DNA from: Dehalococcoidia bacterium
GTDB taxonomy: Bacteria; Chloroflexota; Dehalococcoidia; DSTF01; RBG-16-68-14
NCBI GenBank assembly: GCA_040882355.1
Contig: JBBEBM010000054.1
Location: 61,328-81,327 of the forward strand
Direction of reading: 5' to 3'
Length of the DNA: 20,000 nt
Position 1 is the first letter of the stretch; each line of letters begins with the position of its first letter. Positions 1,910-15,348 of this stretch are shown one piece after another. The notes under the pieces are model-generated. The model worked only from the letters and a program-made list of their open reading frames with translations. It made no database searches and had not been told where the DNA came from. Both the position numbers and the translations under genes were made by a program.

Positions 1910-1994
1910 GGCCTGTCCGAAGCCTCACCACGCCTCTGCTGGTCCGAAGGTGTGTCCCGCGGCCAGCATCGAGAGGCGGGAGTGCGAGGTTTAG

Positions 1995-2159
1995 CTAGTC
2001 CGCACCCCCACCGCTTAGGGAATGCAGAATGTCCTGGTTCTCGAAGAGCACCAGGCCGTCACCAGCGCCAAAGGTCTTGTTCTTGGCCATCTTGGTGATC
2101 GCCCGAATGTCGCCGTAGGGCAACAGTACGGGCTTCTCATACGCCTTGCGAATCCCCAT
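1995..2159 (-). CDS. Lasso peptide precursor A3 (54 aa): MGIRKAYEKPVLLPYGDIRAITK|MAKNKTFGAGDGLVLFENQDILHSLSGGGAD
   Basis: Strong SD (GGAAAGGAGGGG) upstream of the ATG at 2159. Leader has an exact YxxPxLxxxGxxxxxT motif. The longer ORF-track start at 2219 runs through the SD. Confidence 0.9.
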   Translation of the reverse strand: MGIRKAYEKPVLLPYGDIRAITKMAKNKTFGAGDGLVLFENQDILHSLSGGGAD

Positions 2160-2291
2160 ACAGCCCCTCCTTTCCTTGCGCTTGGACGAGTCGGTCAGCG
2201 TCTTCTGACCGCGGGACACCTCAGCTAGCGTTCAGCCCCGCCGCTGGCGCAGATGTGTCCCGCGGCCAGCATCGAGAGGCGGGAATGCGGG

Positions 2292-2441
2292 TTAGCTGAT
2301 CGTTTGCAGAATGTCCTGGTTCTCGAAGACTACCAGGCCGTCACCAGCGCCGAAGGTCTTGTTCTTCGGCATGGTGGTGATCGCCCGAATGTCGCCATAG
2401 GGCAACAGCACGGGCTTCTCGTACGTCTTGCGAATCCCCAT
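2292..2441 (-). CDS. Lasso peptide precursor A2 (49 aa): MGIRKTYEKPVLLPYGDIRAITT|MPKNKTFGAGDGLVVFENQDILQTIS
   Basis: Absent from the ORF track; translated by hand (ATG 2441, TAA 2292-2294). Same SD and leader motif as A3, 42/49 aa identical to A3, ends in Ser. Confidence 0.9.
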   Translation of the reverse strand: MGIRKTYEKPVLLPYGDIRAITTMPKNKTFGAGDGLVVFENQDILQTIS

Positions 2442-2510
2442 ACAGCCCCTCCTTTCCTCACGCTTGGACGAGTCGGTCAGCGTTCTGACCGCGGGACACC
2501 ATAGTTGTCA

Positions 2511-2577
2511 ACCCGACCGCGGGCGCGCCGGCGCCGAGCGCCACGCGCATGCCGCTGTGGCCTTTTCGCGGCGGGGG
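2511..2577 (-). other. GC-rich imperfect stem-loop between precursors A1 and A2
   Basis: Inner gccac...gtggc arms and imperfect outer cccgaccgcg...cgcggcggg arms. Seen by eye, not folded computationally. Confidence 0.35.
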
Positions 2578-2588
2578 TCTCACATGCC

Positions 2589-2807
2589 TTAGGACAGACC
2601 AGTATCGCCTCCTCCGCTGGGTTGAGCCTCCCAGTGGAAGAAGATGAACAGGTCTCCGGGGCCCCAGTCCTTGTGGCGGAACCGGTGCGTAGTCAACTCC
2701 CGGATATCGCCATACGGCTGGATCGCCGGGCGCTGATACGCCTTGCGGCTTCCCTGACCACTATCCCTCTCCCTAGGCGTCGACGAGCTGGCGACTTTGC
2801 GTGCCAT
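2589..2807 (-). CDS. Lasso peptide precursor A1 (72 aa): MARKVASSSTPRERDSGQGSRKAYQRPAIQPYGDIRELTT|HRFRHKDWGPGDLFIFFHWEAQPSGGGDTGLS
   Basis: SD GGGGAGGAGGTG just upstream of the ATG at 2807. Leader YxxPxIxxxGxxxxxT shares PYGDIR with A2/A3. Overlaps the 3' end of the cyclase by 35 nt. Confidence 0.88.
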   Translation of the reverse strand: MARKVASSSTPRERDSGQGSRKAYQRPAIQPYGDIRELTTHRFRHKDWGPGDLFIFFHWEAQPSGGGDTGLS

Positions 2808-4680
2808 GCGACACCTCCTCCCCTTGTTGTTCCCGAAGCCACAGGCCCGCGGTGATCGCCCTCCACAAGGCGTGCCACCATGGGTGCTGACGGCTCCGGT
2901 ATGTCTCCAACTCTGTTGCCAGAGTGGGGCCATCTACGTAAAACAGCCGGCCCAGCGGACCGTCGAGCAACGCCGCATCGACGCGTTCGCGGTCGCGATC
3001 AAGCAGGCCGGTGTTCATGAGCTCATCGAAGATACCCTTGTCTGTACGCTCCACCACCACCTCAGGCAGCCGCGGACGCATAGCGTCGCGCAGGAGCGCC
3101 TTCGACCGTCCCGGGCGAACGTTCACCCAGGAGGGAAAGCGCAGCATCAGCTCCACCACACGCAGGTCCCAGAACGGTGAGCGCGCCTCCACACCGGCCG
3201 GCAGCGATGCCTGCCGCTCGCGCCATCCAATCACGGGCAACACCTCGCGGCGGTGCAGCGCCCAGAACAGTTCCAGGTCGTCGGCCTTGCGCCAGAGCGT
3301 CGGGACCTCCGGCGTTTCAAGCGCCGCGTCCAAGCCCAAGGCGGCGATCGCATCTGCGTCGATCCAGGGCGGCAGCGGGCTGGGGGCGGGCCGCCCGCGC
3401 CATGCGCGAACCCGGTGACGGAGCGCGTTTGGCGTCAGCGGAGCCAGGCCGGCCGATGCGAGCACGCTGAGGGTTGAGCGGTTATAGGCACGGCCCCAGG
3501 CGCTCGCGTCGCGCAGGGCGTGGGCCCAGTGCCCGCCGATCAACAGCTCGGCTATGTATTCCGTGGAGCTGCTCATGCACTCGTCCCCGCCTATGCCGTC
3601 AAGCAGAACGCAGACGCCGTCGTCGCGAGCCGCTTCCGCCAGGCGCACCATGAGAGGCGCCTGCATTGGCACGTTCGGCTGATCGAACACCGAGTCAGGC
3701 AGGTAGTGCGAGCTCAGGCTCCAGCAGTCGTCGACCGGGATCTCTTGCACGCTGATGCCGAGCTGGTGGCCGACCGCTCGAGCGTAGTGTCGCTCGTCCA
3801 TCCCGCTCGAGCCCTTGACGTAGGCGTTGTACGCGCGGAGATTGGGCGTGGCTTCGCGGGCGCGCGCGGCGACGTATGACGAGTCAAGCCCGCCGCTGAG
3901 CAGTACAGCGGGCGCCGAAGGGGCGCGCACCGCCGCGGCGGTCGCCTGGCCGAAGACTTCTTCGAAGTGCTCCACGTACTCCTCGCGGCGCTTGTACCGC
4001 AGCGTGGGCCGAGGTCCGAAACGCCAGTACTCCTGCAGCAGGACCTCGTCCCCGCGGGCCAGCAAGTAGTGCGCCGGCGGCACTTCGGCCACCGAAGCGT
4101 AGGGTGTTGCGCCCGGTTCGGGCACGGCGCCCGTGAGGTGACACGCGAGCACGAGCGAATCGATCGTGCGGGGCACGTCCGGGTGCGCGAAGAGCTGCTG
4201 CGGCTCCGACCCGACGATCAGCCGCTGCCCGACACGCGCATAGACCAACGGCCGAAAGCCGCGCTGGTCGCGCGCCGCGAACAGCGATCCGCTCCGGCTG
4301 TCCCAGAGCGCGAAGGCGAAATCGCCGATGATGCGGTCGAGGCAGGCGGTCTGCCATCGCTCGTAGGCGAGGGCGATGAGGTCGGCGTCGGTTGGCGCCT
4401 CGCGAAAGAGGTAGATGCCCAGCCCCTGCGCGAGGTCTTCGCGGTTGTCGAGGCGTCCGTCCAGGGCGATCTGGTAACGCCCACCGCAGACATGGGTGGG
4501 CAGGCCCTCTCTCGTCGCTTCGGGGGTCGTAGGCAGAATGCGCTGGCCCAGCGCGATGCCGGGGGCCAGCCAGACATGCCCCTGCGACCCGCGATGCGCG
4601 ATCGCGTCGAGCAGACCCTGAAGCTGCTCCCGGTCTACAGGCGCGCCGCTGGCATCGTAGATCGCCGCGATCCCACTCAC
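2773..4680 (-). CDS. Lasso cyclase (C protein; asparagine synthetase B-like macrolactam synthetase)
   Basis: AsnB two-domain architecture with the LSGGLDSS PP-loop, DGIGGDE and RSPFWD motifs. N-terminus is MSGIA (no catalytic Cys). GTG start overlaps the B2 stop. Confidence 0.92.
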   Translation of the reverse strand: MSGIAAIYDASGAPVDREQLQGLLDAIAHRGSQGHVWLAPGIALGQRILPTTPEATREGLPTHVCGGRYQIALDGRLDNREDLAQGLGIYLFREAPTDADLIALAYERWQTACLDRIIGDFAFALWDSRSGSLFAARDQRGFRPLVYARVGQRLIVGSEPQQLFAHPDVPRTIDSLVLACHLTGAVPEPGATPYASVAEVPPAHYLLARGDEVLLQEYWRFGPRPTLRYKRREEYVEHFEEVFGQATAAAVRAPSAPAVLLSGGLDSSYVAARAREATPNLRAYNAYVKGSSGMDERHYARAVGHQLGISVQEIPVDDCWSLSSHYLPDSVFDQPNVPMQAPLMVRLAEAARDDGVCVLLDGIGGDECMSSSTEYIAELLIGGHWAHALRDASAWGRAYNRSTLSVLASAGLAPLTPNALRHRVRAWRGRPAPSPLPPWIDADAIAALGLDAALETPEVPTLWRKADDLELFWALHRREVLPVIGWRERQASLPAGVEARSPFWDLRVVELMLRFPSWVNVRPGRSKALLRDAMRPRLPEVVVERTDKGIFDELMNTGLLDRDRERVDAALLDGPLGRLFYVDGPTLATELETYRSRQHPWWHALWRAITAGLWLREQQGEEVSHGTQSRQLVDA

Positions 4681-5138
4681 GATGCTTTCTCCAACTTCAC
4701 AAGCGCCACCAGGCGCTCTGCAGGCGCCTCAAACACCTCGAACGCGGCGCAGTGGCTCGGTGTGTCGTTTACGGGCTCTCCTGCCACCTCGACCCAAGCG
4801 TGGGCGGCCATCCTATCAGATCCTTTGAGTACACCGATGCGCATTTGTCCTTCGATGCCACGGCGGCGCAGGAGCCAGATCAGGACGAGCGACCGCTGCA
4901 GGCAGCGGCCGCCGAACGGCCAGCGGTTGGCGACAGCGTCGTCTATCCAAGCCAGGCGCGCCGCCTCCGTGCGGTCCGCGCGACCGCCTGACGGCGCACC
5001 GAGGGTGCCCTGCACCCAGCGACCGAGCAGCGCGCGCGGCGGCAGCAGAAAGCCGACCTGCGAGACGCCGAAGTAGACCACCGTCTCGGCCAGCCGGAAC
5101 AGCGTTCGAGGTGTGAGTTGCCTAGCTCGCCGCACCAT
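4677..5138 (-). CDS. Lasso peptide leader peptidase B2 (transglutaminase-like)
   Basis: RCLQRSL (Cys) and AHAWVE (His) motifs, followed by PVND (Asp). Probable start is the ATG at 5138 or the next GTG, overlapping the B1 3' end. The exact start is uncertain. Confidence 0.92.
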   Translation of the reverse strand: MVRRARQLTPRTLFRLAETVVYFGVSQVGFLLPPRALLGRWVQGTLGAPSGGRADRTEAARLAWIDDAVANRWPFGGRCLQRSLVLIWLLRRRGIEGQMRIGVLKGSDRMAAHAWVEVAGEPVNDTPSHCAAFEVFEAPAERLVALVKLEKAS

Positions 5139-5433
5139 CCTCCTTTTTCTCGAAGGCGAGGCCTTTCGCGACAAGCTCGGCCACGAACGAGTCGACGTCG
5201 GCGCGGAGCGCCTCCGGGGCCACGTCAAACTCCTCCACGAGGGTAGCGCAGATGGATGAAACGGAGTCGTCGTCAGCAAGAAGCTGCCAGACGCGCGTGG
5301 CAACGGCGTTCAGGCCGTAGTACTGGCCGGCGTCCAGGTCGAGCGCCACCGCCTCGTCGTCAATGACACGACAGAGCGCGCGGGGGTTGATGCTGTAACG
5401 GCGGTCCGCGACCGCCACTCGGTGGTCTTGCAT
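5122..5433 (-). CDS. RiPP recognition element / PqqD-family protein (lasso B1)
   Basis: 103 aa with DDEAVALDLDAGQYYGLNAVATRVWQLL...EEFDV...DVDSFVAELVAKGL, the typical PqqD pattern. SD AGAGGAGAGG. Confidence 0.93.
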   Translation of the reverse strand: MQDHRVAVADRRYSINPRALCRVIDDEAVALDLDAGQYYGLNAVATRVWQLLADDDSVSSICATLVEEFDVAPEALRADVDSFVAELVAKGLAFEKKEDGAAS

Positions 5434-5460: not shown

Positions 5461-5485
5461 GCTCGTTCAGAATCGCCGAACGAGC
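5461..5485 (-). promoter_or_regulatory. Stem-loop in the putative 5' UTR of the lasso operon
   Basis: Perfect 8-bp inverted repeat gctcgttc/gaacgagc. On the minus-strand RNA it extends by one G.U and one G-C pair. Confidence 0.45.
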
Positions 5486-5749
5486 GTCACGCTGACTGAC
5501 TCATCTAAACGATAACGATCAAAGGTGGAGAGATGGTTGAGACGCAGGTGTAAGTGCCGGCCAGCAGGCCGGGCGGAATCGGGCTTTCGCCGGGCTCGAG
5601 GCGGGCGGCGATCCTCCCTGAGCCACCCCGGTTCCACGTCAATGCCACCGCCGTTCAACAACCGATCAACCCGCCAAATGTAGAAGGTTATGAGACGATG
5701 AAACACGCGTGAACGCGAGCCTCCTCCAGGCTTGCTCGGAGGGTTCCCC

Positions 5750-7477
5750 ATGCAGGTCCTCGGTATCAACTCCTACCTCCACGATTCGTCGGCGGCCCTG
5801 ATCAAGGACGGCCGGCTTGTCTTTGCGGCAGAGGAGGAGCGCTTCTCCCGGATCAAGAAGGACGCCCGCTTCCCCAGGCTCGCCATCCAGGCCGCGCTCG
5901 ATCATGCGGGTATCGAGTTCAGCGAACTGGAGGGCATCGCTTTCGGCTGGAACAAGGGCGGCGCCACGCCTCTGCACACGCTCCGCTCCACGCTCACCGG
6001 TGGGCTGCCGTTCAGCGCCCGCTACGTCGTCGACTCGTTCATGTCGACCGCGCGCGAGGTGTATCAGGCCAACGGGCGGCGAGCGCTAGAGCGCGCCTTC
6101 GGGCCGTTCGATCACAAGCGCATCTTCTTCGTCGACCACCATGACGCCCACGCGTGGAGCACCTACGCTCTCTCCGGCTACGACGAAGCGCTGGTCCTGA
6201 TCATGGACGGCCGCGGCGCCAGCCAGTCCACCACGCTCTACCATGGTCGCGGCGACAAACTGCGCCTCATCCGCACCATCAAATTCCCGAACTCGCTCGG
6301 CTCCTTCTACGAGTCGTTCACCGACCTGCTCGGCTTCGAGCGCAACAACGATGAGTGGAAGGTGATGGGCCTGGCCGCGTACGGCGAGCCGACACACGAC
6401 GTGAGCGACGCGCTCCGCGTTCTGCCGGACGGCTACAAGCTGAACTCGCAGCTCGTCTGCGGGAGCTGGTTCAACGACCTCTCACGCATGACCGCCCGCT
6501 ACGGGCCGCGCCGCGACCCCGAGCGGTTCATCACGGACGACGATCGCAACCTCGCCGCTTCCGTACAGCGCGCGTTGGAGGAAGCGGTATTCCGCCTGGT
6601 CGAGGTGGGCGTGCAAATGACAGGCTGTCGCAACCTCTGCCTGGCCGGCGGCGTGGCGATGAACTCGAAGGCGAACGGTCGCCTGCTCGCCGCCGGCCTC
6701 GTCGACGACGTCTTCGTGCAGCCCGCCGCGACTGATGACGGCACCGCCATCGGCGCAGCCGTTGCCGCGCACGCCGAGCTTGGCGCGCCGCCGCCCCGGT
6801 ATCGCATGACCGACGCCTACCTCGGCCCGGAGTTCGCCGAAAGCGAGATCGCCTCGGTGCTGGACACCTACAAGCTGCGCGCCACCCATGTGCCGAACGT
6901 GGAGGAGGTCGCCGCTGGCCTGCTGGCCGATGGCCAGATTGTCGGCTGGTTCCAGGGCCGGATGGAGTTCGGGCCGCGCGCGCTCGGCAGCCGCTCGATC
7001 CTGGCCGACCCGCGCCGACCGGAAATGAAGGACCGCGTGAACGAGTGCGTGAAGTTCCGCGAGGGCTGGCGCCCGTTCGCGCCGTCCTGCCTGGAAGAAG
7101 CAGCGCCGGAGTACTTCGAAGGCTGTCGTGAGGCGCCCTTCATGATCCTCACCTTCGACGTGCGCCCCGAAAAGCGCGACGTCATCCCGGCGGTCACTCA
7201 CGCCGACAACACCGCCCGGGTCCAGACCGTGAGCGAGGCGGCCAACCCCCGCTACTGGAACCTGATCCGGGAGTTCGCCCGCCTCACCGACGTGCCGGTG
7301 GTCATGAACACGTCCTTCAACCTGCGCGGCGAACCGATCGTCTGCGCGCCCAAGGACGCAATCCGCACGTTCTACTCATCGGGCCTCGACTATCTGGTAC
7401 TGGGAAGCCACATTGTCGCCAAGGACCCCTTCTGGCAGCCATCCGCGAGCGGGCAACTCGCGACGGCCGACCGGTAG
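5750..7477 (+). CDS. O-carbamoyltransferase (NodU/CmcH/TobZ family)
   Basis: MQVLGI...HDSSAAL...AAEEERFSRIK, HHDAHA, EWKVMGLAAYG, LAGGVAMN, GRMEFGPRALGSRS, VKFREGWRPFAPS and NTSFN motifs. SD GGAGG at 5738-5742 favours the ATG at 5750. Confidence 0.95.
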   Translation: MQVLGINSYLHDSSAALIKDGRLVFAAEEERFSRIKKDARFPRLAIQAALDHAGIEFSELEGIAFGWNKGGATPLHTLRSTLTGGLPFSARYVVDSFMSTAREVYQANGRRALERAFGPFDHKRIFFVDHHDAHAWSTYALSGYDEALVLIMDGRGASQSTTLYHGRGDKLRLIRTIKFPNSLGSFYESFTDLLGFERNNDEWKVMGLAAYGEPTHDVSDALRVLPDGYKLNSQLVCGSWFNDLSRMTARYGPRRDPERFITDDDRNLAASVQRALEEAVFRLVEVGVQMTGCRNLCLAGGVAMNSKANGRLLAAGLVDDVFVQPAATDDGTAIGAAVAAHAELGAPPPRYRMTDAYLGPEFAESEIASVLDTYKLRATHVPNVEEVAAGLLADGQIVGWFQGRMEFGPRALGSRSILADPRRPEMKDRVNECVKFREGWRPFAPSCLEEAAPEYFEGCREAPFMILTFDVRPEKRDVIPAVTHADNTARVQTVSEAANPRYWNLIREFARLTDVPVVMNTSFNLRGEPIVCAPKDAIRTFYSSGLDYLVLGSHIVAKDPFWQPSASGQLATADR

Positions 7478-7763: not shown

Positions 7764-8188
7764 GGCTCCTTGTCCGCAGCCAGGATCGATTTCGCCTGGT
7801 TGATCCCGTCAAGCAGCAGCAGGGCGTTCCCGCTCGCCATCGAGCGAATCAGGCCGGCGTAGATCAGGCGATCGCACGCGCGTCTCAGCACCCCCGCCGC
7901 CTCGTCATCGCCCATCGTCTCGGCGCGCTGACAGATCGCGATGATCTCGACCAGCGCTCCGCCGAGGTCGGTGTCGCGAACGTCGCCCTTGGTCTGCAGG
8001 GCTGCGGGCGCCTGCCGCTCTACAACAACAAAGTCCTCCAGCACGACAGCAATCGCATCCTGGGGATCCGACGGCAGGCCGTCATCGGCGCTGTCGTCCG
8101 AGTCGCTGCTGCAGGCGACCAACCAGGGAATCATGATCGCGCTCGTGAGGAGGAGAACCCTCCAGCGTCCGAACGGCTGTCTCACCAC
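7760..8188 (-). CDS. Hypothetical lipoprotein
   Basis: SD GAGAGGAG upstream of the GTG at 8188. Basic N-region, hydrophobic stretch, lipobox LVAC, then a Ser/Asp-rich linker. Confidence 0.65.
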   Translation of the reverse strand: MVRQPFGRWRVLLLTSAIMIPWLVACSSDSDDSADDGLPSDPQDAIAVVLEDFVVVERQAPAALQTKGDVRDTDLGGALVEIIAICQRAETMGDDEAAGVLRRACDRLIYAGLIRSMASGNALLLLDGINQAKSILAADKEP

Positions 8189-8257
8189 GTTGTCGTCTCC
8201 TCTCTCACGGCGTTCAGTATACCCCGGCGATCCGCGCTGGCGTAAACAGCCCATGTA

Positions 8258-8286
8258 TCGACTTCAGCACCAGCACGTTGTACTAT
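8258..8286 (+). promoter_or_regulatory. Putative sigma70 promoter for the glycoside hydrolase gene
   Basis: TCGACT-N17-TACTAT, ending 8 nt before the ATG at 8295. Confidence 0.4.
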
Positions 8287-8294
8287 GCAAACCC

Positions 8295-10844
8295 ATGCGT
8301 CGGAGGCGCACACCGGCTTTCCTCATGCCTCGCACCGGCCTTGTCATTGCTTTGCTGGCGCTCGCCGCCTCTCTCGCCGCGCTTCCCCCGTGGTCGGAGC
8401 CCGCATCGGCCGGCTCGACGGTGAATCTGACGGTGGACGGCTCGCAGCAGTTCCAGGACATCGACGGACTGGGCGTGAACATCAACCCGAAGAACTGGAA
8501 CGATGGCGAGCTAATCCCGGCGCTGGACCTGCTCGCCGACCAGCTTGGCGCGGAGATCTTTCGCGTTGACCCGTTCGGCCAGTCGGACTGGGAGGTGGTG
8601 AACGACAATAGTCAGGCTGGGACGTTCAACTGGGCGTACTACAACGACATCTACGAATCGCCATCGTTCCAGGACCTCTGGCAGACGCTGGAGTACCTCG
8701 AGCAGAAGGACGTCCAGATCATGGTCGGCGTCTCCGGCCTCGTGCCCTCCTGGATGGGCGGCACGGCCGTGGACCCCGGCTGGGAGGCGGAGTGGGTCGA
8801 AATGATCGCCTCGCTCGTCTACTACGCTCGCGTCGTGCGCGGCATCGACTTCACCATGTTCAGCCCAGCCAACGAGACCGACTACGGCCCGCCGGAGGGC
8901 CCGTCCGCGGACGAGGCAAGCTACGTGGACCTGGTCCACGATCTGTTTCTTCGCCTCGACTCGCTGGGCCTATCGGACATCCGGCTCGTCGGACCGGATG
9001 TCGCCTTCCTGGACATGGACTACCTCGACGAGATCTGCGCCGACGCATACCTACTGGGAAAGCTCGATCACTTCGCCTTCCACAACTACAGCGGCAACAT
9101 GAACCAGGCGCCAGGCAACGCCGTGACGTGCGGGCGCGACGCCTGGATGACGGAGTGGTCCCAGGCGACCACAGACGGCTTCCTGGACAATGGCAACCAG
9201 GTGGCCGACGAGTGGGCGTTCGCGCGCGTCATGACCGACTATCTGTTCAACCACCTGAGCGACGACGACGGGGCGGGCCCGGGCGAGGGCGCCGAAGCCG
9301 TGCTCGCCTGGGACGCGTTCGACAACATTCACGAGCACAACCCCTCCGGCCTCTACTCACGCTGGGGTCTGGTCGCGTACGACCTGGACACCGGCGTCTA
9401 CACGCCCAAGGACCGGTTCTTCACCAACGCGCAGTTCTTCAAATTCATCTCGCCCGGCTCCGCGCGCATCGGCGCTGCCGAATCCGAACCCAACCTGCAG
9501 GTGCTGGCTTTCCGCCACGCCGCCACGGGGCGGCTGACCCTCGCCGGTCAGAACGTGGGCGGCGCGACGCTCACGCTCAACGGTACGATCAGCAACGTTC
9601 CGTCCGCGCCGACCACGCTGGCGCTGTACCGCACCAGCAGCTCGCTCGACCTCGCCCGCCAGGCAAACGTTCCTGTGAGCAGCGGGACGTTCTCGATCCA
9701 GGTGCCTCCCGACAGCTTCTTCACGCTGACGGGCACGCCCGGCGTCGCCGAATCCACGCCACCATCCATCTCGGGCGTCTCTGCGGCCGGCGTGACCGCT
9801 ACCGGCGCCTCGATCGTTTGGAACACCAACGAGGTCGCGGACACGCGTGTTGAGTGGGGCACGACCGCGTCCTACGGGCAAAGCACGGTCTTCGACGCGG
9901 GCCTGGTAACGTCACACCATCAGAAGCTGGCAGGTCTGCTGCCCGCCACGACGTACCATTACCGCGCGCACAGCGCCGATGCTTCCGGGAACCCCTCCGT
10001 GAGCAGCGACCACACCTTCACGACCACTACCGCCCCGCCCACGCTCACCGTCACGTTCGACGATCTGGCTGGACAAGACCAGGTGCTGAACGGCCAGTAC
10101 CCCGCAGGCGTCATCGACTGGGGCACGAACGCCTGGTACCACTCCGGCCCGTACGGCCTCTTCAACACAAAGAGCATCGGCTTCAACGGCCCGTCCATCA
10201 CCGCCGCCACGTTTACGCTCCTCACGCCGCGCCGCCTGGTGAGCATTCGGGCCCACAACGGCGCGTCAGGCCTGGCGACCAACACGACGGTGACGCTGAG
10301 CTGCCCCGGCCAGCCCGACAAGCGCGCCGATCTCGTCGTAGGCGAGATCGCGACGATTCCCACCGGCTGGGCCGGCACCTGCTCCAGCGTGACGATCGCA
10401 AGCACGGACGGCTGGGTCACGAACTTCGACGACCTCGTCTTCACCAGCGGCGGCGGCGCGCCCCAGGGCCCGGACAACGACGGCGACGGCTGCAGCGACG
10501 CCGCGGAGCAGCAGACCACACCGGGTAGCGAGGTGATCGGCGGGCTGCGAGATGCCAACGATGTCTGGGACTTCATGGACCAGTTTGTCGGCGCGCCGCT
10601 GGCAAGGGACCGGATTGTGGCCGTCGGCGACATCGGCGCCGTGGTCGGCCGCTTCGGCGCCACCGGGAGCCCGTCGGGCGACCCGCTGGTCCCTCCTGCA
10701 GGTTCCACCGGCTACCATACGAGCGCCGATCGCCAGGGGTCCATCCCGGGCCAGAACCCCTGGAACCTGCGCCCGCCCGACGGCGTGATCTCTATCGGTG
10801 ACGTGGGCGCCGCTGTCGGGCAGTTCGGGCACAGTTGCGCGTAG
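8295..10844 (+). CDS. Secreted multidomain clan-A glycoside hydrolase (GH30-like) with an FN3-like domain and a C-terminal flexitail/dockerin-like domain
   Basis: Signal peptide MRRRR...ASA|G. Acid/base motif SPANETD and nucleophile motif WMTEWS. FN3-like WNTNEVADTRVEWGTT...YHYRAHSADASGN. C-terminal DNDGDGC...QFGHSCA. Start is 8295 or 8325. Confidence 0.75.
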   Translation: MRRRRTPAFLMPRTGLVIALLALAASLAALPPWSEPASAGSTVNLTVDGSQQFQDIDGLGVNINPKNWNDGELIPALDLLADQLGAEIFRVDPFGQSDWEVVNDNSQAGTFNWAYYNDIYESPSFQDLWQTLEYLEQKDVQIMVGVSGLVPSWMGGTAVDPGWEAEWVEMIASLVYYARVVRGIDFTMFSPANETDYGPPEGPSADEASYVDLVHDLFLRLDSLGLSDIRLVGPDVAFLDMDYLDEICADAYLLGKLDHFAFHNYSGNMNQAPGNAVTCGRDAWMTEWSQATTDGFLDNGNQVADEWAFARVMTDYLFNHLSDDDGAGPGEGAEAVLAWDAFDNIHEHNPSGLYSRWGLVAYDLDTGVYTPKDRFFTNAQFFKFISPGSARIGAAESEPNLQVLAFRHAATGRLTLAGQNVGGATLTLNGTISNVPSAPTTLALYRTSSSLDLARQANVPVSSGTFSIQVPPDSFFTLTGTPGVAESTPPSISGVSAAGVTATGASIVWNTNEVADTRVEWGTTASYGQSTVFDAGLVTSHHQKLAGLLPATTYHYRAHSADASGNPSVSSDHTFTTTTAPPTLTVTFDDLAGQDQVLNGQYPAGVIDWGTNAWYHSGPYGLFNTKSIGFNGPSITAATFTLLTPRRLVSIRAHNGASGLATNTTVTLSCPGQPDKRADLVVGEIATIPTGWAGTCSSVTIASTDGWVTNFDDLVFTSGGGAPQGPDNDGDGCSDAAEQQTTPGSEVIGGLRDANDVWDFMDQFVGAPLARDRIVAVGDIGAVVGRFGATGSPSGDPLVPPAGSTGYHTSADRQGSIPGQNPWNLRPPDGVISIGDVGAAVGQFGHSCA

Positions 10845-12788: not shown

Positions 12789-13934
12789 CTGTCCCCGACG
12801 CGCACCCGACGCTCTACCGTCCTTCAAACCTCCCTCACTGTCGCCGCTGGGGCCACGTTCCTCGTACTGACAGCGTGCGCAGGCGAGGCCGCCCCGCCGG
12901 CGCCGACCGCGACGCCTCGCCCTAGCCCTACCGTCACCGCCACCGCAACGCCTGAGTTCCTGGAGGCGGCGCAGGTGCCGCCTCTGACGCTCGCCGAAGT
13001 CTTTCCACGGCGCGACCTGGCCACGTTGCGCCTCGACCCCGCCCGGCTGCGTACCGTCATCGCCACTGGCGACGTGATCCCGGCGCGCGGCGTCGACTAC
13101 GCCATCCGCCGGCGCGGCGATGACTTCCTCTTCCCCGTCGCCGCCACCACACAGCTCACAAGCAACGGCGACCTCACCGTCATCAACCTGGAAGCGCCGC
13201 TCGTCTCCTATTGCGGGCCGGCGCCATCCGGCACGTTCACCTTCTGCGGCCGGCCAGGGTTCGTCCAGGCACTGCAGGCGGCCGGCGTCGACGTCGCCAC
13301 GCTCGAGAACAACCACATCGGCAACTATGGCTCGGACGGCATCGCCGAGACGGCGGGCCACCTCGACGCAGCAGGTATCGCCTGGGCCGACCGCGACTCG
13401 CCGGCCGTGCGCGACCTGCGGGGGTTGCGCTTCGGCTTCCTCGCCTTCAACGGCGTCGGCGAGCGCATCGACCGGCAAGCGATGGCCGCGCAGGTCCAGG
13501 CGCTGCGCCCCCAGGTGGACGTGCTGATGGTGGCCGTGCACTGGGGCGCCGAGTACGTGCGCGTCCCCCAGACGGCGCCCGGCGTCGCGGATGACTACCC
13601 GGTCGAGATCGCGCATCTGGCTATCGATTCGGGCGCGGACCTGGTGATCGGCAACCACCCGCACTGGGTTCAAGCGGTCGAGCTATACAACGGCAAGTTC
13701 ATCGCCTACGCCCACGGCAACTTCATCTTCGATCAGATGTGGTCCTACGAGACGCGCGTCGGCGTCGTGGGCCGGTACACGTTTTATGACAAGTTACTCG
13801 TCGGCGTGGAGTTCGCGCCGGTGCTCAGTCAGGACTACTCCCAGCCTGTGCCGATGCAGGGTGCCGAGTCCCAGGCGGTCCTGGACGCGATGGAGGCCGC
13901 GAGCATTGAGCTCGCGGCGAAGCTGGTTCCCTAG
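12789..13934 (+). CDS. CapA-family (PGA_cap) metallophosphoesterase-like lipoprotein
   Basis: GDVI, INLE, NNHIGNYG, HWG, GNHPH and HGNFIFDQ motifs. The frame extends upstream of the ORF-track GTG (12975) through a Pro/Thr linker and lipobox LTAC to a CTG at 12789. Confidence 0.85.
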   Translation: MSPTRTRRSTVLQTSLTVAAGATFLVLTACAGEAAPPAPTATPRPSPTVTATATPEFLEAAQVPPLTLAEVFPRRDLATLRLDPARLRTVIATGDVIPARGVDYAIRRRGDDFLFPVAATTQLTSNGDLTVINLEAPLVSYCGPAPSGTFTFCGRPGFVQALQAAGVDVATLENNHIGNYGSDGIAETAGHLDAAGIAWADRDSPAVRDLRGLRFGFLAFNGVGERIDRQAMAAQVQALRPQVDVLMVAVHWGAEYVRVPQTAPGVADDYPVEIAHLAIDSGADLVIGNHPHWVQAVELYNGKFIAYAHGNFIFDQMWSYETRVGVVGRYTFYDKLLVGVEFAPVLSQDYSQPVPMQGAESQAVLDAMEAASIELAAKLVP

Positions 13935-13972
13935 CCGCGAAAGTGGTAATCAGAATGCGCAGACCTGCATAT

Positions 13973-14001
13973 TCGACGCTGATCCAATCGGCTGGTATAA
14001 T
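13973..14001 (+). promoter_or_regulatory. Sigma70 promoter for yvcK, probably giving a leaderless transcript
   Basis: TCGACG-N17-TATAAT with extended TG. The ATG at 14008 begins after a 6-nt gap from the -10 box. Confidence 0.7.
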
Positions 14002-14007
14002 CTTGCC

Positions 14008-15348
14008 ATGCGCTTCCTGAAGATCGACTCCAGCTTCGTGAAGTGGTTCTACTTCGGGATGCATATCAAGCGCTGGCTGCTCCTGTTGCTGATCGGGGTG
14101 GCCGTCATGGCGCTGGGCTTCGCCTACTTCCTGCGCGAGGTCTACCAGAGCTACGTCTTCCCGTCCGAGGTGTACTACCTAACCCTCCAGTTCCTGCCCC
14201 GCTGGGTTCGAGGGGCGATGTTCCTTGCCCTGAGCATCGGCATCATCATCTTCGCGGTCTGGCAGCTCAACCGTTCGCTCCTCTCCGCCTTCATCCAGTC
14301 GAGGCGCGACGAGAGTCTGGTGAACATCATTTACAACCACCGCTACCGGTTGCGCGGCCCGAAGATCGTCGCCATCGGCGGCGGTACCGGCCTATCGACC
14401 CTGCTGCGCGGGCTCAAAGAGCACACGGGCAACTTGACAGCCGTCGTCACCGTCGCCGATGACGGTGGCAGCTCTGGCAGGCTGCGCCGCGAGCTCGGCC
14501 TGCCGCCGCCCGGCGACGTGCGCAACTGCATCGCGGCGCTGGCGGACGTGGAACCGCTGATGACCAAGCTCTTTCAGTATCGCTTCGACGAAGGTGCGGG
14601 CCTGGAAGGTCACAGCTTCGGCAACCTCTTCATCGCCGCCATGACCTCCGTCACGGGCAACTTCGAGGAGGCGGTGCGCGAGACCAGCCGGGTCCTGGCC
14701 GTGCGCGGGCAGATCCTCCCGTCGACACTGGCCAACGTCACCCTCTCAGCCGTCGGAGAAGACGGCGAAGCGATCCACGGCGAATCGCAGATCACGGAGC
14801 GCGGCGGCCGCATCAAGCAGGTCTTCATCCACCCAGAGCACGCCCAGGCAAACCCGGACGCGATCAGAGCCATACTCAATGCGGACATGGTGATTGTGGG
14901 GCCGGGCAGCCTGTTCACCAGCGTCCTGCCCAACCTGCTCGTCGAGGGCATTCGGCGCGCCATCGAGATGTCGACAGCCGTCAAGGTCTACGTCTGCAAC
15001 GTCGCGACGCAACACGGAGAGACGGACGCCTTCTCAGTCAGCGACCACTACGAAGCGCTGTACGAGCACATTCGCGCCCACTTCTTCCACTACGTGGTCG
15101 CCAACAACAACATCTCGCGCGACGGCCTGCCAGAGGCATGGCGATCCGAGCCGGTGCGCATCGACCGACAGCGCGTGGACGGCGCGACGGTCTTCGCGGC
15201 TGATGTTATCAGCGAAGAGAACCGGTACCACCACGATTCGAAGAAGCTCGCCGCCGCATTGATCCGCCTCTACTTCCAGCGGCGCGAGTTCGAGCCGCCT
15301 CCCTCCCGCGAGGAGGAGAAGCGGCCTCAAGAGGCGGCAATCGTCTAA
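14008..15348 (+). CDS. yvcK: YvcK/GlmR (CofD-like, UPF0052) protein with an N-terminal transmembrane extension
   Basis: KIVAIGGGTGLS, VADDGGSSGRLR, PPGDVRNC, GHSFGNL and GPGSLFTSVLPNLLV motifs. Two hydrophobic helices at the N-terminus. Confidence 0.92.
   Translation: MRFLKIDSSFVKWFYFGMHIKRWLLLLLIGVAVMALGFAYFLREVYQSYVFPSEVYYLTLQFLPRWVRGAMFLALSIGIIIFAVWQLNRSLLSAFIQSRRDESLVNIIYNHRYRLRGPKIVAIGGGTGLSTLLRGLKEHTGNLTAVVTVADDGGSSGRLRRELGLPPPGDVRNCIAALADVEPLMTKLFQYRFDEGAGLEGHSFGNLFIAAMTSVTGNFEEAVRETSRVLAVRGQILPSTLANVTLSAVGEDGEAIHGESQITERGGRIKQVFIHPEHAQANPDAIRAILNADMVIVGPGSLFTSVLPNLLVEGIRRAIEMSTAVKVYVCNVATQHGETDAFSVSDHYEALYEHIRAHFFHYVVANNNISRDGLPEAWRSEPVRIDRQRVDGATVFAADVISEENRYHHDSKKLAAALIRLYFQRREFEPPPSREEEKRPQEAAIV

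Follow-up and report, generated by a model that had tools for sequence, protein, structure and literature searches.

A predicted lasso peptide variant whose conserved K-x-Φ-G-x-x-D core module hints at a mode of ring closure not yet described

Introduction

The definition of lasso peptides rests on a ring of seven to nine residues closed by the N-terminal amine, and mining tools filter candidate precursors by that rule. The described systems closest to the locus reported here are paeninodin and pseudomycoidin, from Bacillota, whose clusters are reported to comprise split B1 and B2 proteins, a cyclase, an HPr-kinase-like kinase, an NTP_transf_5 nucleotidyltransferase and an ABC exporter (PMC8498205, PMC6993621). 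In this type, the precursor's C-terminal Ser is described as phosphorylated by the kinase, and the phosphate as receiving a hexose from the nucleotidyltransferase (PMC8498205). We analysed a 20,000-nucleotide stretch of DNA (hereafter the window) from a Dehalococcoidia bacterium (assembly GCA_040882355.1, contig JBBEBM010000054.1, positions 61,328 to 81,327), whose minus strand carries, in the order B1-B2-C-A1-A2-A3-kinase-ABC, what by its predicted gene set is a functional lasso cluster of the paeninodin/pseudomycoidin type. Three precursor genes (A1, A2 and A3) are placed between the cyclase gene and the HPr-kinase-like gene.

As in paeninodin and pseudomycoidin, the leaders carry YxxPxL and Thr(-2), and A1 and A2 end in Ser. 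The locus departs from them in its host, a member of the Chloroflexota (Dehalococcoidia) and not of the Bacillota, and in its cores: paeninodin and pseudomycoidin close Ala1 onto Asp9, whereas A2 and A3 have no acidic residue at positions 7 to 9 and the conserved Asp stands at position 11 or 12. This Asp ends a K-x-Φ-G-x-x-D module preceded by a stub of variable length, an arrangement that is not described for paeninodin or pseudomycoidin. The module occurs in a family of precursors whose lasso machinery is complete, whose conservation extends across phyla and for which the rule of seven to nine residues cannot hold. The precursors are, as predicted from their sequences, a new lasso variant, and the module hints that the ring may be closed in a manner not described before.

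Three precursors share a core module

Each precursor gene lies on the minus strand, and a GGAGG-type ribosome-binding site can be read from the sequence ahead of each ATG. A1 (72 residues, positions 2589 to 2807) starts at an ATG at position 2807 inside a longer frame (2589 to 2933), which bears out the end coordinate given in a first-pass annotation of this DNA. The A1 homologues P0042, P0043, P0045, P0046 and P0050 begin at the same Met, and A1 shares its first 35 nucleotides with the 3' end of the cyclase gene. A2 (49 residues) occupies positions 2292 to 2441 and A3 (54 residues) positions 1995 to 2159, the latter with its ATG at position 2159 inside a frame of 1995 to 2219. These genes are the sole copies in the 3.33-Mb assembly.

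All three leaders follow the pattern Y-x-x-P-x-[LI]-x3-G-x5-T-x, and the published rule for lasso leaders is given as Tyr(-17), Pro(-14), Leu(-12) and Thr(-2) (PMC10368454). The A1 leader is ...YQRPAIQPYGDIRELTT and its core HRFRHKDWGPGDLFIFFHWEAQPSGGGDTGLS; A2 has the leader MGIRKTYEKPVLLPYGDIRAITT and the core MPKNKTFGAGDGLVVFENQDILQTIS; the core of A3 is MAKNKTFGAGDGLVLFENQDILHSLSGGGAD. Under the rule, the cores start with MPKNKTFGAGD (A2), MAKNKTFGAGD (A3) and HRFRHKDWGPGD (A1), with Met (A2, A3) or His (A1) at position 1. Each contains a heptad that was checked by hand against the sequence: K-D-W-G-P-G-D in A1 (2652 to 2672, minus strand) and K-T-F-G-A-G-D in A2 (2340 to 2360, minus strand) and A3 (2058 to 2078, minus strand). 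Its Lys and Asp stand at positions 6 and 12 in A1 and at positions 5 and 11 in A2 and A3. No acidic residue precedes Asp11 in A2 and A3, while A1 has both Asp7 and Asp12. The first-pass annotation had already recorded the shared K-x-(F/W)-G-x-G-D and these Asp positions, and we read them in the same way. It had overlooked the invariant Lys six residues before Asp, which adds closure by the Lys side chain as a fourth option to the three that it listed, namely an oversized ring, a shifted cleavage site and a second trimming step.

A1 and A2 terminate in Ser. A3 ends in ...SLSGGGAD, with Asp as final residue and a Ser six residues before the end. The A3-type precursors (A3 itself, listed as winA3, with P0004 and P0007) carry an extra GGG-x-(x)-D beyond the Ser that ends their A2-type relatives, and owing to this extension the presumed target Ser of the kinase would not be terminal in them.

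A small family with a stub of variable length

A word-based search with A2 gave seven close homologues that are 80 to 84% identical; one of the seven, P0008, differs from these relatives by a one-residue deletion in the stub, between Thr and Asp. A ten-sequence profile searched against 1.84 billion protein representatives returned 30 matches at E ≤ 0.001. The motif K-x-[FWYLIHR]-G-x-x-D was present in 23 of the 27 short matches, or 24 with a relaxed Φ, in a search whose profile favours such sequences, having been built from module-bearing ones; the long matches P0018, P0029 and P0030 (299 to 1812 residues) were left out of the counts. Two further alignment searches supplied extra members. The family amounts to a few dozen clusters among 5.8 billion, and the sole name found for it in any source is "lasso RiPP family leader peptide-containing protein" (RiPP, a peptide made by the ribosome and modified after translation), attached to P0044 from a Dehalococcoidia metagenome-assembled genome (MAG). 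Since P0037 comes from an Ectothiorhodospiraceae MAG, the family crosses phyla, joining Chloroflexota and a gammaproteobacterium. When 401 genomes of the phylum were searched with A2, G027 was the sole real member beyond the window, the other matches having E > 0.01. In G177 no precursor was found under the leader pattern, and a search of genome contigs for loci with a ten-row alignment gave no match. The single locus returned by a metagenome scan (L033) was rejected as a chance match in another reading frame.

What defines this small cross-phylum family is the combination of a canonical leader and a K-x-Φ-G-x-x-D core module. In an alignment of 33 rows chosen for carrying the module, no columns are invariant other than those of Pro(-14), Gly(-8), Thr(-2), Lys, Gly and Asp; P0021, P0032, P0034 and P0038, in which the strict module is missing, were excluded. 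Across 53 distinct module-bearing cores, Asp stands at position 9 (3 cores), 10 (14), 11 (21), 12 (12) or 13 (3) and Lys at position 3 (3), 4 (14), 5 (21), 6 (12) or 7 (3), with Lys always six residues and Gly three residues before Asp. The spacing from Thr to Asp, whose conservation the first-pass annotation had wished to see checked in homologues, is therefore not conserved. Single-linkage clustering at 60% identity grouped the 53 cores into 21 clusters, and all six multi-member clusters contain more than one Thr-to-Asp spacing, that is, more than one stub length, so a defined macrolactam of 11 or 12 residues, as had been suggested, is not what the family conserves. The window operon itself mixes spacings (Lys6/Asp12 in A1, Lys5/Asp11 in A2 and A3), and P0006 (Asp11) and P0050 (Asp10) appear to share one NCBI contig of 28,460 bases. 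Because the profile search penalises insertions and deletions, the variation in stub length is no artefact of the search.

Any Asp or Glu at positions 7 to 9 occurs in only 14 of the 53 cores, and the break with the ring rule that had been noticed in the window is real and conserved. A C-terminal Ser is found in 43. Position 1 is Met in 15 cores, His in 9, Gly in 8 and Gln in 7, and otherwise T, A, F, I, S, R, W or L; it is Pro in none. Pro is present in 21 of the 53 stubs, at position 2 (as in Met-Pro) in 15, and P0027, which is present on four contigs, has GGPPP ahead of Lys. The residue immediately before Lys is Asn (19 cores), Gly (6), His (5), Val (4), Arg (3), Pro (3) or Ala (2), and in the remainder I, D, Y, S, C, T, L or W. 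Gly precedes Asp in 38 cores and follows it in 27. The residue after Lys may be D, E, T, Q, K, S, R, F or N, so that Asp7 of A1, considered earlier as a possible acceptor, is not conserved.

Relatives without the module and the leader register

The comparison set consisted of leader-homologous precursors lacking the K...G...D module, taken from protein searches and from neighbouring genomes; 34 sequences were gathered and two of them (L004_+1600 and L048_+17930) were set aside as false positives of the pattern, leaving 32. With the same cut after Thr-x, 28 of the 32 have their first suitable Asp or Glu at one of two positions, 16 of them at position 8 and 12 at position 9. The set includes six Abditibacteriota precursors, all with D9, and five from four Dehalococcoidia clusters, three of which were checked for gene order and also show C-A-kinase-ABC. 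Because these relatives put an ordinary Asp or Glu at position 8 or 9, the Thr(-2) register is sound and the anomaly is no counting error. Together with the published leader rule, this upholds the core starts of the first-pass annotation and disposes of a mis-assigned conventional register, which it had named as a possible explanation.

Position 1 is variable in the canonical relatives too (V, G, A, T, K, R, N, Q or S). An R-x-x-G-x-x-D variant was found in none of the 32 sequences when the output was inspected by eye. Seven Lys-rich precursors with the same leader type (P0062, P0063, P0064, P0066, P0068, P0070 and P0073) have an ordinary [A/T]-K-x5-D8-G core followed by G-K-P-[RK]-T; they make up a cationic family and loosely recall triculamin-like peptides.

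Loci and cyclases of the relatives

Three full clusters besides that of the window serve module-type precursors. G654, from the same class, has the order B1-B2-C-A-kinase-ABC-permease-nucleotidyltransferase with one precursor (GFDFNKEHGPAD...), and its cyclase is about 52% identical (51 to 53%) to that of the window. G027, from the same phylum, carries B1, B2, kinase, ABC, A and C together with a nucleotidyltransferase, and the Ectothiorhodospiraceae locus carries B2, B1, kinase, C and A. A full-length cyclase adjoins the precursors in all four. No extra peptidase was found in the four clusters, where the scan against Pfam took in part of the neighbouring frames in the window, G654 and G027 and the Ectothiorhodospiraceae locus was compared with the window proteins only. 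At E ≤ 1e-5, G000, G654, G027 and G657 contain one full-length cyclase each.

A cyclase tree was built from four sequences of module-type clusters and eight of canonical clusters, the groups being named before the tree was built; one row, L055, sits on a long branch. The cyclases of the window and of G654 come out as sister to three from Dehalococcoidia with precursors of the types S1-D9, G1-D8 and G1-D9 (support 100/99), while those of G027 and Ectothiorhodospiraceae group with the Abditibacteriota D9 cyclases (support 82/84). A single clade of module-type cyclases was rejected by the approximately unbiased (AU) test (p 1.6e-48). As the module-type cyclases nest among those of eight- and nine-residue rings, ordinary cyclases appear to accept these cores, which is easier to explain with an ordinary ring geometry. 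The leaders of A2 and of the gammaproteobacterial P0037 have 6 of 17 residues in common and their cores 16 of 24 aligned residues, including nine in a row (KNKTFGAGD), whereas the P0037 leader matches Abditibacterium D9 leaders at 10 to 11 of 17 positions. The core thus moves separately from the leader, the module being paired with leaders and with cyclases that are typical locally.

Another arrangement was observed in G657, where locus L044 (8184 to 10573, contig G657:C99) contains a module-bearing precursor, AVDKKFGFSD...NAS, at L044 9424 to 9546. Directly upstream lies P0052, a stand-alone asparagine-synthase-domain protein of 375 residues with the PP-loop SGGRDS and no N-terminal domain, and directly downstream an HtrA-like serine protease that lacks a PDZ domain. 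The only full cyclase of G657 is elsewhere, on C24, within a canonical G1-D8 cluster. The setting of P0052 recalls the truncated triculamin cyclase; when P0052 was searched for in 401 genomes of the class, the only match was in G657 itself.

How the ring may be closed

The first-pass annotation held that any outcome would be unusual lasso biochemistry, and we agree. Tentatively, and while we would sooner expect it to prove wrong than right, we favour closure of the ring by the lasso cyclase from the ε-amine of the internal Lys onto Asp, leaving a free N-terminal stub. B1 would bind YxxPxL and B2 would cut after the invariant Thr(-2)-x, as the conserved motifs suggest, so that position 1 of the core would be Met in A2 and A3 and His in A1. 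The cyclase would adenylate the invariant Asp (Asp11 in A2 and A3, Asp12 in A1), a role to which its invariance and its G-D-G context point. The attack would come not from the N-terminal α-amine but from the ε-amine of the invariant Lys, six residues upstream, a step without precedent. Counted from Lys Nζ to Asp Cγ at i/i+6, the resulting macrolactam would have 26 ring atoms, equal to an ordinary eight-residue Glu ring. An eight-residue Asp ring has 25 by the same count and a nine-residue Asp ring 28, in agreement with the "9 aa (28 atom ring)" given in PMC13352647; closure of the α-amine onto Asp10 to Asp13 would need 31 to 40. The free stub would be MPKN in A2, MAKN in A3 and HRFRH in A1, and two to six residues long across the family, and the Lys-closed scaffold that we propose would have two free ends, this short stub and the tail at the C-terminus. 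If the later steps resemble those of paeninodin and pseudomycoidin, the Ser that ends A1 and A2 would be phosphorylated by the kinase, a sugar may afterwards be added by the nucleotidyltransferase and the product would be exported by the ABC transporter.

Closure by Lys would explain why the stub alone varies in length, why Lys is never replaced by Arg, why ordinary cyclases suffice and how Pro-rich stubs are allowed. A module served by ordinary cyclases of eight- and nine-residue rings would also account for its spread onto different leaders in Chloroflexota and Pseudomonadota. In the three Lys3/Asp9 members, Lys Nζ would take roughly the place that the α-amine of residue 1 has in a nine-residue ring, which would open an evolutionary path. 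Met-Pro N-termini resist ordinary aminopeptidases, and the Pro-rich stubs fit a free end with such resistance. If true, Lys-closed rings would mean a new cyclase regiochemistry and a new two-tailed scaffold.

Bonds of this kind have counterparts elsewhere. In graspetides such as microviridins, side-chain lactams between Lys and Asp or Glu are made by ATP-grasp ligases; the side-chain-to-side-chain macrolactam is the kind of bond proposed here, but the enzyme here is asparagine-synthetase-like, and no ATP-grasp domain was found among the 15 window frames scanned. Within the lasso peptides, the ring of gelatinamin (class V) is reported to contain Lys2, which precedes the acceptor, Asp8, by six residues (PMC13178200), and the class V and triculamin-like peptides gelatinamin A, lariocidin B and triculamin are described with Gly-Asp-Gly around the acceptor, which the context of the Asp here resembles, and, as here, with near-identical cores across phyla served by unrelated cyclases (PMC13178200, PMC12070363). 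The Lys ε-amine of class V also forms an isopeptide bond; however, the ring is given as an ordinary Ala1-Asp8 one, and the Lys bond runs to the C-terminus by way of a clostripain-like transpeptidase (PMC13178200). The same 15 window frames contained neither such a transpeptidase nor an N-acetyltransferase. Moreover, class V and triculamin-like peptides are strongly cationic, whereas the cores studied here are non-cationic, with hydrophobic tails ending in Ser, and the GPGD of A1 compared with the PGDG around the class V acceptor is a resemblance only.

Several points weigh against closure by Lys. All steps of the mechanism are inferred from sequence. A literature search, with most subscription journals outside it, gave no lasso cyclase that uses a Lys side chain and no paper describing a natural lasso ring that is Lys-closed or larger than nine residues, and the only known lasso Lys isopeptide is the class V bond onto the C-terminus (PMC13178200). 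The invariance of Lys, Gly and Asp is partly by construction, because the profiles and the family definition rest on the module. B2 and Thr(-2) are kept in every cluster and precursor examined, which would be unexpected if the α-amine were unused, and Pro, though common in the stub, is never at position 1, as would be expected if a primary α-amine is required but just as much if the protease is unable to cut before Pro. A Lys six residues before Asp can coexist with an ordinary ring, since the seven cationic relatives have Lys2/Asp8 directly after Thr-x, and in two lineages, P0032 and P0048/P0049, Asp10 occurs without Lys at Asp-6. Finally, the three Lys3/Asp9 members could be canonical nine-residue rings.

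Oversized α-amine rings, in which residue 1 is joined to the invariant Asp to give 11 residues in A2 and A3, 12 in A1 and 9 to 13 across the family, would involve only known chemistry at the known cut site, yet we regard them as rather doubtful. In that case a bulky C-terminal phospho- or glycosyl-Ser would act as a lock and relax the limit on ring size, and wild-type pseudomycoidin is indeed reported to purify unthreaded, its C-terminal phosphate and sugar having been proposed as a lock (PMC6993621). A lasso cyclase can close a ring of more than nine residues, as the fusilassin (fuscanodin) enzymes made a ten-residue-ring analogue (PMC8498205), but that analogue was engineered in vitro and is one residue larger, whereas the natural family would need 10 to 13. 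The lack of Pro at position 1 in 53 cores and the leader homologues P0032 and P0048/P0049, with Asp10 and no Lys, also fit such rings. Met1 and His1 would be no obstacle, since position 1 varies in the canonical relatives and PalC accepts every residue there except Pro (PMC13632552). Metanodin (Asn1; PMC12670498) and the palassoptides (PalC; PMC13632552) are precedents for an unusual ring position 1, although in both the cut at Thr(-2) and the size of the ring are described as ordinary. Our doubt comes from the fact that ring size would have to vary by up to four residues among close relatives, and even inside one operon served by one cyclase, with cyclases that nest among makers of eight- and nine-residue rings. 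The constant length from Lys to Asp beside a varying length before Lys, and the absence of Arg in place of Lys, would be left without a reason, and a review of June 2026 gives only seven-, eight- and nine-residue natural rings as characterised (PMC13352647). Rings of 9 to 13 residues, if true, would extend the known limits of the lasso fold.

Removal of the stub by other peptidases, after or instead of the B2 cut, would yield an x1-K2-...-D8 ring (Asn1 to Asp8 in A2 and A3, His1 to Asp8 in A1) or a nine-residue one. Pseudomycoidin, from a system with the same kinase and nucleotidyltransferase type, is reported to mature without leader, B1 and B2, its N-terminus being set by cellular proteases (PMC6993621), and x-K-x-Φ-G-x-G-D-G resembles the gelatinamin ring with Ala1, Lys2, Asp8, Gly9 and a PGDG motif (PMC13178200). 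The seven cationic relatives carry [A/T]-K-...-D8 right after Thr-x, the residue before Lys is Asn in 19, Gly in 6 and Ala in 2 of the 53 cores (with metanodin as precedent for Asn1; PMC12670498), and the G657 precursor adjoins an HtrA-like protease. We nevertheless consider trimming unlikely, as the four full clusters showed no extra peptidase in the scans and comparison described above and as the invariant Thr(-2) points to a B2 cut three to seven residues upstream of the required N-terminus. Pro stands before Lys in 3 of the 53 cores, and the Pro-Pro-Pro before Lys in P0027 excludes both eight- and nine-residue α-amine rings for that precursor; the general resistance of Met-Pro N-termini to aminopeptidases tells against trimming as well. 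Were it true, it would represent a new maturation step. A cut after KTF, giving Gly1...Glu10 as the first-pass annotation had considered, rests on a Thr and a Glu found only in the A2-like clade. With the Gly at K+3 as ring residue 1, Asp would fall at position 4, and a cut right before Lys would give a Lys1-Asp7 ring of 22 atoms, below any known, with a cut site that shifts relative to the leader; both were rejected.

It is quite improbable, in our view, that no ring forms on the conserved Asp, the products being linear phosphorylated or glycosylated peptides, or A1 alone being cyclised at Asp7, with K...D serving as a target-binding motif. Linear polyphosphorylated peptides from related sets of kinase, RiPP recognition element and nucleotidyltransferase are on record (PMC13381572), and the 67% identity of the A2 core to the gammaproteobacterial core would also fit selection for a target. 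Set against this are the full-length cyclase beside the precursors in four of four full module-type clusters and the G-D-G around the invariant Asp, which resembles the acceptor context described for triculamin-like peptides (PMC12070363). Asp7 of A1 is replaced by Gln in P0023 and by Thr in A2-like members, and its position shifts with the stub.

The biosynthetic cluster and its surroundings

All genes of the cluster are on the minus strand. The cyclase C (positions 2773 to 4680, 635 residues) is asparagine-synthetase-like (Pfam Asn_synthase, 147 bits); it scores 352 bits against NCBIfam lass_lactam_cya, under the 525-bit cut-off. Its PP-loop reads SGGLDS, and as the protein begins with MSG, it lacks an N-terminal Cys nucleophile. 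The transglutaminase-like leader peptidase B2 (4677 to 5303 in its longest frame) matches NCBIfam lasso_biosyn_B2 with 78 bits (cut-off 33) and Pfam Transglut_core3 with 81 bits, and its true start is probably nearer 5125 than the start of the longest frame. B1 (5122 to 5433, 103 residues) is a PqqD-type RiPP recognition element (Pfam PqqD, 72.5 bits) that also matches lasso PqqD models with scores under their cut-offs. The HPr-kinase-like peptide kinase K (932 to 1909, 325 residues) gives only a weak match in the P-loop region (Hpr_kinase_C, 24 bits, under the 33.3-bit cut-off; HprK_rel_A, E 5e-7), and a homologue is present in 10 of 12 related lasso loci examined. Searching by sequence turned up no solved lasso cyclase structure and none of kinase K. 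The ABC transporter ATPase D (3 to 935; Pfam ABC_tran, 97 bits) has a frame that continues past the left end of the window, and just beyond it on the contig (locus L046) follow an ABC-2 permease and the NTP_transf_5 nucleotidyltransferase (L046 7326 to 8453, 167 bits), which is also found in G654 and G027.

A2 and A3 form a tandem direct repeat of 282 nucleotides that is 93% identical (window 1945 to 2500). Between them lies an inverted repeat (2205 to 2269) with 21-nucleotide arms (2205 to 2225 and 2249 to 2269) that are 86% complementary around a 23-nucleotide loop, and a 15-nucleotide arm, CTGACCGCGGGACAC, plus its complement flank both A2 and A3. The hairpin between the two genes may be an element that processes or stabilises the mRNA and thereby sets the precursor dose.

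Directly upstream of B1, a frame of 100 residues (5467 to 5769, minus strand) has no Pfam or NCBIfam match. Divergent from B1 lies a NodU/CmcH-type carbamoyltransferase (5732 to 7477, plus strand, 581 residues). It was considered as a tailoring enzyme that modifies Lys and rejected; as the related G654, G027 and Ectothiorhodospiraceae loci have no homologue, it is probably outside the cluster. Further along the plus strand, positions 7941 to 10844 encode a 967-residue protein in which a "flexitail" domain is recognised at the C-terminal end (NCBIfam, 93.6 bits) and a relative of which is found near the G654 cluster. Positions 13786 to 15348 encode a CofD/YvcK-family protein that is extended at its N-terminus by about 190 residues without a match to any family.

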